This document shows, piece by piece, positions 61,060 to 64,000 of a stretch of 64,000 nucleotides of DNA (position 1 is its first letter; the number at the start of each line of letters is the position of its first letter). The stretch is from Gemmatimonadaceae bacterium (GTDB lineage: Bacteria; Gemmatimonadota; Gemmatimonadetes; Gemmatimonadales; Gemmatimonadaceae), in the NCBI GenBank assembly GCA_051859245.1, contig JBHYGA010000005.1:352001-416000 (forward strand). Reading direction: 5' to 3'. The position numbers and the translations under genes were made by a program. The notes below the pieces were generated by a model. It was not told the DNA's origin. It did not search any database and worked only from the letters and a program-made list of their open reading frames with translations.

Positions 61060-61377
61060 ATGGCCAACATGTTCAACTTCATGCAGCAAGCCCAGCAGAT
61101 GCAGGGCAAGCTGGAGCAGCTGCAGCAGGATCTTGCGCGTCGCACGGTGAGTGCATCGGCGGGCGCAGGTATGGTGACGGTGGAGTGCGACGGCAAAGGA
61201 CAGCTGCGTCGCGTCAAGATCGATCCGAGCATGTTCACCGCGGGTGACGTGGAAATGCTTGAAGATCTGATCGTGGTGGCTGCGGCCGAGGCGCAGAAAA
61301 AGGCGGCCGAAGCGGCGCAGGAAGAAATGGGCAAGCTCACCGGCGGGATTGATCTGCCGTTCAAGCTGCCGTTCTGA
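61060..61377 (+). CDS. ybaB: YbaB/EbfC nucleoid-associated protein
   Basis: MQQAQQMQ, GAGMVTV, D.EMLEDLI..A; between dnaX and recR. Confidence 0.95.
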   Translation: MANMFNFMQQAQQMQGKLEQLQQDLARRTVSASAGAGMVTVECDGKGQLRRVKIDPSMFTAGDVEMLEDLIVVAAAEAQKKAAEAAQEEMGKLTGGIDLPFKLPF

Positions 61378-61392
61378 TTCTGCGAAGCGCGC

Positions 61393-61980
61393 GTGTCTGC
61401 GATTGACGATCTCACGACCGAGTTCGCCCGACTTCCTGGTGTCGGTCGGAAAACGGCGCAACGTCTCACGTATCATTTGCTCAAGCAATCGGCCGAGCAA
61501 AGTCGCAGACTCGCGCAGGCGCTGATCACGCTCGTTGAGACGGTGCGACCGTGTTCGCGCTGTTACAACCTCACCGAAGCCGTACTCTGTTCGCTGTGCA
61601 CCGACTCGCGTCGTGATCCGACGTTGGTGTGTGTGGTTGAAGATGCGTCCGACATTGCCTCGATTGAACGTGCGGGTGAGTTTCGAGGGCGCTACCACGT
61701 ACTCGGCGGTCGTCTTTCACCGCTCGACGGTGTTGGTCCCGATGATCTCACGATCGCCCGTCTGCTAGCGCGCGTGCCCGAAGACGAGATCCAGGAAGTG
61801 ATCATGGCCACCAATCCTTCGCTCGAGGGCGAGGCCACCGCGCTGTACATCCAACGCCTGCTCGCGCCGCTGGGTGTTCGTGTCACGCGCATCGCGCGCG
61901 GGCTGCCAGTGGGCGGGGATCTTGAGTACGCCGACGGCGTCACAATCGCGCAGGCGTTGCAGGCGCGGCGGGAGATGTAG
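61393..61980 (+). CDS. recR: Recombination mediator RecR
   Basis: LPGVGRKTAQRL, C4 zinc finger, YHVLGG, EGEATA, G.PVGGDLEYAD. Confidence 0.97.
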   Translation: MSAIDDLTTEFARLPGVGRKTAQRLTYHLLKQSAEQSRRLAQALITLVETVRPCSRCYNLTEAVLCSLCTDSRRDPTLVCVVEDASDIASIERAGEFRGRYHVLGGRLSPLDGVGPDDLTIARLLARVPEDEIQEVIMATNPSLEGEATALYIQRLLAPLGVRVTRIARGLPVGGDLEYADGVTIAQALQARREM

Positions 61981-61986
61981 GCGGGC

Positions 61987-62179
61987 GTGCTCCTAATGCG
62001 GGGGGAACTGCGGCGGGAAGGACACGAAAGCACGAAGGAAACAAAGAAGAGCAACGGCAACGGATTTTGGGGAAACAGCAAAAAACGCTGCGGCTGCAAT
62101 TTTTCAAATGCTTTGCTGTTTTCGTGTCCTTCGTGCTTTCGTGTCCTTCCCGCCGCAGTTCCCCCCGCATTAGGCGCAC
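61987..62179. repeat. Long inverted repeat (~190 bp hairpin; 48 bp perfect arms 61992-62039 / 62127-62174) with internal CACGAA repeats
   Basis: CCTAATGCGGGGGGAACTGCGGCGGGAAGGACACGAAAGCACGAAGGA is the exact reverse complement of 62127-62174; pairing extends imperfectly inward and outward. Confidence 0.97.
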
Positions 62180-62186
62180 CTCGCCT

Positions 62187-62615
62187 TCAACGCTCCTCAG
62201 CCGGATACCCGTTCACAACGCGCCGCACGACTTCACGAAATGTCGGTGCGCCAAAGTTGAGAAGCAGCCCAATCCTCAGGTTCATCAGGCGCGCGTACGT
62301 GAGCGTTTGTTTGATGTGAGCCGCCGCGGTCTGATCGGCGACCTTCACCTCAACGATCAGTATGCCATCGACTACGAGATCGGCGCGAAATCCGCCCTCG
62401 AACAACTGGCCTTCGAAGTAAAAGTCCACCGGAAGCTGTCGCTCCACCCGACAGCCTCGCCGCTCCAGGGCATGCGCGAGCGCGCGCTCGTAGACGGACT
62501 CAAGCATGCCCGGGCCGAGGGCGCGGTAGAGGTGGTAGGCGGCGTCCACCACGAGAGCGGCGAGGACCTCTGGGTTCGGGGCAGACGGGGCAGGGCGAGC
62601 GGGCACGGGCGTCAC
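62187..62615 (-). CDS. GxxExxY protein (PD-(D/E)XK nuclease superfamily)
   Basis: LGPGMLESVY signature, RADLVVD..LIVEVK, Q.LTY, GLLLNFG. Confidence 0.95.
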   Translation of the reverse strand: MTPVPARPAPSAPNPEVLAALVVDAAYHLYRALGPGMLESVYERALAHALERRGCRVERQLPVDFYFEGQLFEGGFRADLVVDGILIVEVKVADQTAAAHIKQTLTYARLMNLRIGLLLNFGAPTFREVVRRVVNGYPAEER

Positions 62616-62723
62616 TCCACGGGAAATGGGGCCCAGAGAACAGGGGCGCCGGTTTACATTACGACGGCCCCGTCGTCAGGTCGTCATCACCCCGAATGAA
62701 TCCGTCCCTTTTGCCGTCGTTCG

Positions 62724-63002
62724 ATGCGTCGTAGTCGGTCCCCGATCTTTCTGCTGTCCGCCGGGCTCGCGCTTGGCTTTCTCGTTGGAGCCGGGGCCTG
62801 GAGCGCCCAGCTCAGCCGCAGCCGCAAGGCACTGTTTCACGCGCGGCCCACGCGCCGGATGGCCGCAATCAGTTACCTTCGGGCTCGGCCAAGCGTTGAT
62901 AGTGTGCGGCTGCTACGTGACTATATCGCGTGGGAAGCACATCCCATGCTGCGCCGTCGAGGGCAGCGGGCGCTTCTGCGTGTGGAGCGCGCGCTGCACT
63001 AA
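62724..63002 (+). CDS. Small hypothetical protein with N-terminal TM helix, upstream of mglB
   Basis: Hydrophobic N-terminus, LF...P.RR.AA..YL...LLRDY..WE; co-oriented with mglBA. Confidence 0.7.
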   Translation: MRRSRSPIFLLSAGLALGFLVGAGAWSAQLSRSRKALFHARPTRRMAAISYLRARPSVDSVRLLRDYIAWEAHPMLRRRGQRALLRVERALH

Positions 63003-63043
63003 GCGTTTTTTGTTCTGAGACTCGGACTTTTCGGAGCCACAGT

Positions 63044-63532
63044 ATGCCCGTTGGCGCGTCGACCTGGTCGTTCACTGAAGACGACTTCGGGGCTATTACC
63101 AAGATTCTGCAGAGCTTTTTGTACGACGCCAAGGCGCGCTGTGCTCTGCTTGTGGACCGCTCCGGTCAGCTCGTGGCCACCGTTGGTGAGCCACCCAACT
63201 TTGACGCGACCGCCTTCGCCACACTTACGGCTGCGGATTTCAGCGCCAATGATCAGCTGGCGCGCCTAATTGGTGAAAGCGATTTCAAAGTGCTGTTTCA
63301 CCAGGGCGAACGCGAATCCATGTATCTCGCCGACGTCGCCAAGCGTGTGATCCTTGTCGTGCTGTTCGACAATCGCACAACGCTTGGTCTGGTCCGTCTC
63401 AAAATGAAAAGTGTGGTCGACGAGCTCTCGCGCACCTTCGAGTTGGTGTTCGCGCGTGGCACCGGCAGTCAGATCGCGCCGCCGGGGCTGCTCGCTGGCG
63501 CCGAAGACGAGATCGATCGCTTGTTTTCGTAA
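63044..63532 (+). CDS. mglB: Roadblock/LC7 protein MglB (GAP of MglA)
   Basis: ALLVDRSGQL, LARLIGE..F..LFHQGE, FDNRTTLGLVRL, EDEIDRLF. Confidence 0.93.
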   Translation: MPVGASTWSFTEDDFGAITKILQSFLYDAKARCALLVDRSGQLVATVGEPPNFDATAFATLTAADFSANDQLARLIGESDFKVLFHQGERESMYLADVAKRVILVVLFDNRTTLGLVRLKMKSVVDELSRTFELVFARGTGSQIAPPGLLAGAEDEIDRLFS

Positions 63533-63544
63533 GAGGGACACGCG

Positions 63545-64000
63545 ATGTCGATGATCAACTACGCGTCCCGCGAAATCAATTGCAAAATTGTGTACTACGG
63601 CCCGGGACTCGGTGGCAAGACCACCAATCTCGAGTTCATTTACGGCAAAGTGTCGCCGAGTACGCGCGGCAAACTGATTTCGCTCGCAACGGAAACAGAA
63701 CGCACGCTGTTCTTTGATTTCTTGCCGGTTGACCTTGGTACGATTCGCGGTTTTCGCACGCGATTCCATTTGTACACCGTGCCGGGCCAGGTGTACTACA
63801 ACGCCAGCCGCAAGCTCATTCTCAAGGGCGTCGATGGCGTGGTGTTTGTGGCCGATTCGCAGAGCGACCGCATGGAAGCGAATCTGGAGAGCATGCAGAA
63901 TCTGTACGACAACATGTCGGCGTACGGCTATGATCTCACGCGCATGCCGTTTGTGATTCAGTACAACAAGCGTGATCTCCCGAATGCGTCGCCACTCGGT
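63545..64000 (+). CDS. mglA: MglA small GTPase (3' truncated by window edge)
   Basis: Translated by eye: [29 protein letters not shown]...ERTLFFDF...TVPGQVYY...QYNKRDL. Confidence 0.96.

Follow-up and report, generated by a model that had tools for sequence, protein, structure and literature searches.

A GxxExxY nuclease gene and its dispersed hairpin family at the recR locus of a Gemmatimonadaceae bacterium: a candidate REPIN-RAYT-like gene-repeat system

In the genome of a Gemmatimonadaceae bacterium (GCA_051859245.1), a gene for a small GxxExxY protein of the PD-(D/E)XK nuclease fold (gene #1) lies antisense between recR and a small open reading frame (ORF) that precedes mglB- and mglA-like genes, directly beside a palindrome that belongs to a repeat family, here named F1. 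The locus falls within a 64,000-nucleotide (nt) stretch of contig JBHYGA010000005.1 (positions 352,001 to 416,000, or G000:C5:352001-416000, where G000 is the host genome and other G numbers are relatives), referred to below as the window, from whose first letter positions are counted. Gene and palindrome are linked, gene-less copies of the palindrome with a conserved loop are dispersed through the genome, repeat families are private to their species, the family beside the gene is the one that has expanded in the genome concerned, and the arrangement recurs across phyla. It is very probable that the gene and its hairpin family constitute one co-inherited system. The chances are evenly balanced that the locus is a node of a gene-repeat system resembling that of the hairpins formed by repetitive extragenic palindromic (REP) sequences, known as REPINs, and their REP-associated tyrosine transposases (RAYTs), with a PD-(D/E)XK nuclease taking the place of the Y1 transposase; the narrower proposition that the GxxExxY nuclease acts directly on the hairpins falls just short of even.

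Pairing of genes with palindromes within the genome and across phyla

A genome-wide scan for palindromes (arms of at least 28 nt, at least 85 % identity, span of at most 450 nt) gave 51 hits, from which three runs of ~100 N, at G000:C1:1149614, C4:931925 and C5:641309, were removed to leave 48 long palindromes. The main families are F1, F2 (units GCAGAGAC, ~15 loci) and F3 (units like GGCCGAAA/GGCCAAAT, ~18 copies), and a small family, F4, has two copies. The same genome contains two genes of PF13366, to which the GxxExxY proteins belong, and one gene of PF05635, the four-helix-bundle '23S rRNA IVS protein' (IVS, intervening sequence); all three of these cassette-type genes have a palindrome within 5-130 nt, each from a different family. 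For gene #1 this is F1, at 5 nt by the palindrome scan (7 nt from the arm end). GxxExxY gene #2 (G000:C5:417025-417385, minus strand, 1.0-1.4 kb past the window end) is flanked by a membrane-protein ORF, itself downstream of mglA, and by the next ORF on the plus strand. Its F2 palindrome lies 130 nt upstream of the start codon; as codon 55 is an in-frame TAA, this second gene is probably a pseudogene. The PF05635 gene (G000:C1:950464-951360) has ~220-nt F3 palindromes on both sides. There is, in other words, one gene per palindrome family in this genome. For a 400-bp interval placed at random, the probability of a palindrome within 300 bp is 0.0115, so the joint probability that all three genes would have one is ~1.5e-6. 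A preliminary description of the locus had proposed that hairpin and gene might be a REP/RAYT-like pair, and a non-random link of this kind finds support in the fact that three out of three genes adjoin a palindrome when only 48 exist genome-wide, as well as in the private families that track the gene.

Two automated scans covered 30 PF13366 loci of the same order, several of them recR-site loci of the genus, and in 20 of these the gene is accompanied by inverted tandem-unit arms, which bracket it in 13 loci and form complete palindromes beside it in seven. The far flanks of these 30 loci, amounting to ~70 % of their sequence, had no such arms. Of 30 PF05635 loci in the same 41 genomes, 28 have inverted tandem-unit arms that bracket the gene, versus 1 of 54 controls. 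The arm units of the PF05635 genes are varied and mostly 7 nt long, whereas those of the GxxExxY genes are 8-mers of the form RCRCRRAG, and this possession by each protein of its own arm class argues for a protein-specific relation, as opposed to a generic cassette with arbitrary cargo.

For a comparison across phyla, 80 public loci were used, which are the best 80 of 594 relatives, with 41-57 % identity to the query, and which therefore represent one subfamily; the phyla sampled include Chloroflexota, Desulfobacterota, Alphaproteobacteria, Verrucomicrobiota, Planctomycetota, Acidobacteriota and Bacteroidota. Bracketing was scored by aligning the 160 nt upstream of each gene to the reverse complement of the 160 nt downstream, with a threshold of at least 30, and the control set comprised 630 placements made in these loci at a shift of 1-3.4 kb. 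Inverted arms bracket the GxxExxY gene in 58 of 76 testable loci versus 1 of 630 controls (Mann-Whitney p 1e-34), so that the statement in the preliminary description that periodic, purine-rich palindromes flank GxxExxY genes in other phyla proved sound. The best arm period is 8 nt in 45 of the 58 bracketed loci, and many of the arms open with TCAC and continue with three units of the GCRRAGRC type. The upstream arm, read on the coding strand, is purine-rich in 44 of the 58, pyrimidine-rich in nine and neutral in five. Some loci have a complete hairpin on each side of the gene, and it is the right half of this layout that the recR locus resembles.

The palindromes at the recR site are, moreover, particular to their species. 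By eye, every relative with a recR-site gene has an adjoining purine-rich tandem-unit palindrome, whose sequence is species-specific and whose side, 3' or 5' of the gene, varies among the relatives. In counts that cover both strands and both arms, such that loci number about one-third to one-half of the figures, F1 reaches 56 matches in G000 and 50 in G002, with no more than one in any of the other 12 genus members; beyond the host genome, F1 was detected in one of 40 relatives, namely G002, of the same genus. The palindrome of G006 has 27 matches in G006 and 42 in G004, against two in G000, two in G005 and five in G002; that of G011 has 33 matches in G011 and 16 in G009, with none in G000, G006 or G003; and that of G003 has 61 matches in G003, with none in G013, G005, G000 or G011. 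In four of the four allele groups tested, the family that has expanded in a genome is also the one whose palindrome adjoins its recR-site gene. Thus, among relatives that are not independent samples, repeat populations are private to a species or species pair, and one member sits at the vertically inherited gene.

The recR locus, the GxxExxY protein and the F1 hairpin

The features of the locus, given by window position, are as follows.

61393-61980, plus strand: recR (Pfam Toprim_4, RecR_HhH, RecR_C and RecR_ZnF), with its stop codon 6 nt ahead of the left palindrome arm
61984-62182, no strand assigned: F1 palindrome, a gene-less 'form A' copy, passing from an outer non-periodic stem to a tandem-unit stem to a 75-nt loop
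61987-62045, plus strand: left purine-rich arm, with outer core GTGCTCCTAATGC and then tandem 8-9-nt units at ~62021-62046
62121-62179, plus strand: right pyrimidine-rich arm, with direct repeats TGTTTTCGTGTCCTTC and TGCTTTCGTGTCCTTC at 62117-62149
62187-62615, minus strand: GxxExxY / PDDEXK_3 gene #1, intact, every family-invariant residue kept
62616-62723, plus strand: native upstream region of the small ORF ahead of mglB (intervals compared by eye)
62724-63002, plus strand: conserved 92-amino-acid (aa) ORF, family unassigned, directly after recR outside the genus
63044-63532, plus strand: mglB-like Roadblock/LC7 gene (Pfam)
63545-64000, plus strand: mglA-like small GTPase gene (Pfam), truncated by the window end

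Gene #1 matches the PF13366 PDDEXK_3 profile (E 3.3e-33, 115 bits against a cut-off of 22) and the TIGR04256 GxxExxY profile (E 3.6e-33, 114.4 bits against a cut-off of 35). Its 142-aa translation contains GMLESVY plus ADLVVDGILIVEVK, i.e. the GxxExxY motif and the D...E.K residues. Positions E36, Y39, D76, E86 and K88 are invariant across a 71-sequence alignment in which gene #1 is included, and gene #1 keeps all of the invariant columns. Profile matches and invariant catalytic residues alike therefore uphold the original identification of an antisense 142-aa GxxExxY ORF with intact motifs. An AlphaFold (AF2) model, with a predicted local distance difference test (pLDDT) score of 91.6, has a restriction-endonuclease-like PD-(D/E)XK fold, and its best structural matches are PD-(D/E)XK nucleases throughout, including, in Foldseek, Cas4 SSO0001 (4ic1, E 9e-4) and Hjc (2wiw, E 1.7e-3) and, in VIA-align, the BpuSI nuclease domain (Z 8.2), Cas4 4ic1 (Z 7.8) and Hjc 1gef (Z 6.4). 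Z values of 6-8 are middling for VIA-align, and they indicate only the fold of the modelled protein, a common fold being no sign of a common function. Hjc, the archaeal Holliday-junction resolvase, and Cas4 are akin to the GxxExxY #1 protein in having a PD-(D/E)XK fold of similar size; in contrast, there is no sequence match to any solved chain, as a PDB sequence search with the protein gave 0 matches at E<=1. A homodimer prediction scored 0.00, which speaks neither for nor against dimerization. PF13366/TIGR04256 is a large family that ranges from bacteria to archaea and viruses. In its entry for the family, a survey of PD-(D/E)XK proteins gives the function of PF13366/TIGR04256 as 'Unknown' (PMC3424549). 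A search of published work on GxxExxY/PF13366, with supplements outside its scope, found nothing on function or repeats, and no published description of the gene-hairpin pairing was found.

The two palindrome arms (61987-62045 and 62121-62179) are 59 nt long, 95 % complementary and 75 nt apart, the whole measuring ~195 nt, and the GxxExxY stop codon (62187-62189) is 7 nt from the end of the right arm. These coordinates agree with the earlier account of an inverted repeat that fills the gap to the recR stop and ends ~7 nt from the gene stop; the '48 bp arm' of that account corresponds to the perfect core, the full arm being longer and imperfect, as given above. The inner half of each arm consists of tandem 8-9-nt units (CACGAAAG, CACGAAGG and so on), and the F1 stem units take the form RCRCRRAG. 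The RNA folding energy of the palindrome is -147 kcal/mol for the minus strand (z -17.9) and -154 kcal/mol for the plus strand (z -17.3), and none of 200 shuffles folded as well. With no T-run and no terminator-like site at 61984-62182 on either strand, a reading of the palindrome as an intrinsic terminator was rejected on account of the missing T-run.

The 59-nt arm has 40 matches in the genome, at ~22 loci. Six further copies align with the recR palindrome over almost all of its 206 nt, loop included, at 81-91 % identity, which implies that the family multiplies as a gene-less unit. Eight F1 copies, those six among them, are 'tail-to-tail' hairpins of ~190 nt like the one behind recR, ~10 loci are 'head-to-head', with the same arms in reversed order around a loop of ~25-50 nt, and a few are single arms. 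The dispersal over ~22 loci does not sit with the initial view of the hairpin as a private partner of the gene. According to a crude ORF calling based on GC content at third codon positions (GC3), most F1 copies are intergenic and lie ~2-30 nt from a stop codon, several of them between convergent genes, in keeping with the earlier suggestion that copies land at gene 3' ends. The outer core GTGCTCCTAATGC occurs 30 times in the genome, nearly always within F1 arms. The outer motif GTGCKCCTRRTGC was also considered as a separate REP that F1 would target, a reading ruled out by the fact that there are only 30 copies, nearly all of them in F1 arms. Immediately upstream of one F1 hairpin, at G000:C4:359689-359760, the 17-nt outer motif of F1 (GCGTGCGCCTAATGCGG) is repeated four to five times in tandem.

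F1 arms also mark the borders of variable regions. A 4.2-kb stretch at G000:C1:125547-129794, which is absent from G002, starts right beside a single F1 arm. On G002:C37, a 1.4-kb stretch lies between two direct F1 arms, and the content of G000 differs there (C8:51207-53777). When metagenome contigs from four runs were mapped to the window, depth piled up on the palindrome, consistent with a repeat. Contigs of one soil metagenome run, at ~90 % identity, extend from the right arm into the GxxExxY gene, and none of the contigs from the four runs joins across an empty site.

Pfam identifies the neighbours of the insertion as RecR, a Roadblock/LC7 protein and a small GTPase, which secures this part of the housekeeping context first described; dnaX and ybaB come from a reading of the ORF list alone. 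By tblastn, the 92-aa ORF is matched between recR and mglB in 24 of 29 loci from relatives, i.e. in all 12 from the genus and in 12 of the 17 from outside it; it has zero Pfam or NCBIfam matches and could represent a partner, so far undescribed, of the mglBA module. A stretch around GTTTACATTACG (62652-62663) is retained, by eye, in relatives both with and without the GxxExxY insertion. None of five proteins run through Pfam is a transposase or integrase, the window not having been systematically scanned for other transposase families. Rfam gave no rRNA match in 61300-63100, and the locus, with recR on one side and a protein-coding ORF on the other, is not in a 23S rRNA setting. The Rfam matches at E<=1 in that interval were far sub-threshold plant and animal microRNA precursors and the small RNA models mcr7 and isrG, and these were dismissed because such matches are typical of any long hairpin.

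History of the recR site

Outside the genus, recR and mglB-mglA are close together without GxxExxY in 17 of 17 loci, with the small ORF matched in 12; these 17 loci, like the 30 of the order-wide count, include one locus from the unpublished genome G021. Inside the genus, GxxExxY is present between recR and the small ORF in eight of 13 genomes, and four of the 13 have short, empty or differently filled intervals. In G010, the 1.2 kb ahead of the small ORF and mglB contain other ORFs and no recR, so the site is rearranged or differently filled. A second occupied site exists downstream of mglA, where GxxExxY is also found in G001, G007, G009 and G011; four alleles of this second site form one clade.

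The recR-site alleles are 50-61 % identical to gene #1, while RecR is 82-91 % and MglB 91-96 % identical across the genus loci. Repeated independent insertions at the recR site, which the low identity had suggested, are ruled out by a tree of 109 GxxExxY proteins in which the eight recR-site alleles form a single clade (98 by the Shimodaira-Hasegawa-like approximate likelihood-ratio test, SH-aLRT). The single clade, together with the F1 copy behind recR that is common to G002, implies that the gene is old at the site. Judging from these sequences, the recR-site gene entered once and has since been vertically inherited, fast-evolving and sometimes lost. The notion of a recently landed mobile module accordingly has to be given up.

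Of the 15 F1 sites in G002, 11 have an F1 copy at the orthologous position in G000 (flank identity 77-90 %), the recR copy among them; of the remainder, two are reduced to outer remnants in G000 and two are rearranged. The remnants, at G000:C4:977669-977829 and C1:790820-791028, retain just a small outer hairpin or one outer motif of elements that are complete in G002. Both look like internal deletions of the palindrome, which makes the insertion boundary and any target-site duplication unreadable at either site. No clean recent F1 insertion and no clean empty site was seen between G002 and G000.

A candidate gene-repeat system and its alternatives

In REPIN-RAYT systems, REP doublets form hairpins and are paired with a REP-associated tyrosine transposase (PMC3116915; bioRxiv 10.1101/2022.05.22.493013). 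F1 is similar in that it consists of dispersed extragenic inverted doublets, with head-to-head and tail-to-tail forms as well as singlets; in that the genome holds distinct families, each adjoining one specific single-copy gene; in the largely vertical descent of the recR-site gene and of many F1 sites; and in the species-private nature of the repeat populations. It differs in that the protein is a PD-(D/E)XK nuclease of ~140 aa and not a Y1/HUH transposase, with 0 matches to Y1_Tnp (PF01797) in the whole genome (4.7 Mb, 99.9 % complete), that the F1 stems are built of tandem 8-9-nt units and not of a REP core, and that in many genomes of the GxxExxY system the gene is inside the hairpin; in addition, any mobilization of F1 by the nuclease is putative.

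A second point of comparison is the 23S rRNA IVS of Coxiella burnetii with its S23p gene, a small ORF in inverted arms that is regarded as a selfish element (PMC4990558). GxxExxY cassettes elsewhere also enclose a small ORF in long-stem inverted arms, and the PF05635 IVS family is bracketed likewise in the order (28 of 30 loci) and flanked by F3 in this genome. In contrast, the recR locus is outside any rRNA gene, its ORF belongs to the PF13366 nuclease family and not to the PF05635 four-helix bundles, gene #1 is outside the hairpin, and F1 has many gene-less dispersed copies. Miniature inverted-repeat transposable elements (MITEs) and other miniature palindromic repeats, which include Correia, ERIC and BOX, are like F1 in being short, non-coding, palindromic, intergenic and multi-copy. 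F1 departs from them in having arms of tandem short units and in being a family tied to a nuclease gene family across phyla, and we know of no related autonomous transposase for it.

In the system proposed here, a single-copy, vertically inherited, fast-evolving GxxExxY gene would encode a small PD-(D/E)XK nuclease and would adjoin one member of a non-autonomous hairpin population, in this case F1 with its ~22 loci. The nuclease may recognize the tandem units of its own family, in hairpin, cruciform or single-stranded form; cutting at the units could then drive or maintain the copying of hairpins, with host repair or replication performing the joining, and the nuclease gene and the hairpin population would co-evolve. 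A wider and more tentative proposal, which we would rather doubt than affirm, holds that GxxExxY nucleases are trans-acting partners of a widespread, undescribed class of tandem-octamer hairpins and so make up a second replicator system of the REPIN-RAYT kind, that the PF05635 '23S IVS' cassettes are a sister system with its own arm class, and that nuclease and arm units co-evolve so fast as to leave each species with private repeats.

Several observations weigh against a nuclease-driven system. F2 keeps ~15 loci although the adjoining gene #2 has an in-frame TAA. Gene #1 stands beside a complete hairpin and not inside one, the commoner layout elsewhere being a gene between arms. Since the non-enzymatic PF05635 occurs in the same cassette type, nuclease activity is not obviously needed for spread, and co-inheritance alone would likewise yield the pairing of gene and family. 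The F1 family is old, as REPIN populations are. Lastly, G002 has F1 but no PF13366 match, which is explained by a contig that ends inside the palindrome behind recR, leaving the gene region unassembled.

Among other explanations, the arms could work at the level of RNA, in an IVS-like cassette whose arms form a stem that is cut by ribonuclease III (RNase III) and that insulates or regulates a selfish gene, the function of the nuclease (e.g. in defence) being unconnected to hairpins. A strand-specific, transcript-level role would suit the upstream position of the purine-rich arm on the coding strand in 44 of 58 loci, and PF05635, the family of 23S IVS ORFs, is bracketed in the same way (28 of 30). 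The Coxiella IVS is reported to be excised by RNase III (PMC4990558), and the F1 hairpin, having no T-run, is not a plain intrinsic terminator. This explanation is nonetheless unlikely, as gene #1 is outside the hairpin, so that the stem cannot excise its mRNA, as copies that lack the gene but conserve the loop have spread to ~22 loci, as an insulator role does not predict a private family matching the gene-side copy in each species, and as the unit classes, RCRCRRAG 8-mers for GxxExxY and mostly 7-nt units for PF05635, point to protein-specific arms. Less probable still is an element of use to the host at gene 3' ends, i.e. a REP-like mRNA stabilizer or terminator for the convergent recR and GxxExxY transcripts, with proximity reflecting common descent at a permissive site. 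Such an element would accord with the location of most F1 copies ~2-30 nt from a stop codon, several between convergent genes, and with the 11 of 15 sites conserved between G000 and G002; however, it leaves unexplained why three of three cassette-type genes have a palindrome when there are only 48 genome-wide, why bracketing extends across phyla and why families pair privately with genes, and the palindrome has no terminator-like site.

PD-(D/E)XK homing endonucleases exist, and a gene that spreads by homing, with the nuclease cutting gene-less hairpins and repair from the gene-bearing copy installing the gene, would account for the common arms of gene-in-loop and gene-less forms in many genomes. 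It is very unlikely nevertheless, for there is one gene copy per family versus ~20 gene-less copies, and the recR-site alleles are a single old clade. That an unrelated miniature repeat simply landed by an unrelated small gene is hardly credible: the ~21 other F1 loci without an adjoining GxxExxY gene are what it would lead one to expect, but it is strongly disfavoured by the counts, namely a joint probability of ~1.5e-6 within the genome, 58 of 76 loci versus 1 of 630 controls across phyla, and a pairing that held in four of four allele groups.

On the practical side, hairpins of this kind break short-read assemblies, as exemplified by the contig of G002 that ends inside a palindrome, and the genome examined here, in which an intact gene and a pseudogene occur along with three to four repeat families, offers itself as a model system. 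If the GxxExxY nuclease acts on the hairpins, this would explain how a common type of intergenic palindrome arose. It would also supply a second enzyme class for the REPIN-type idea of a 'replicator within genomes', and it would connect hairpin repeats to the long-puzzling ORF-bearing intervening sequences of rRNA. For PF13366/TIGR04256 itself, a family without an assigned function, the pairing provides a concrete candidate substrate in the form of its own tandem-octamer hairpins.

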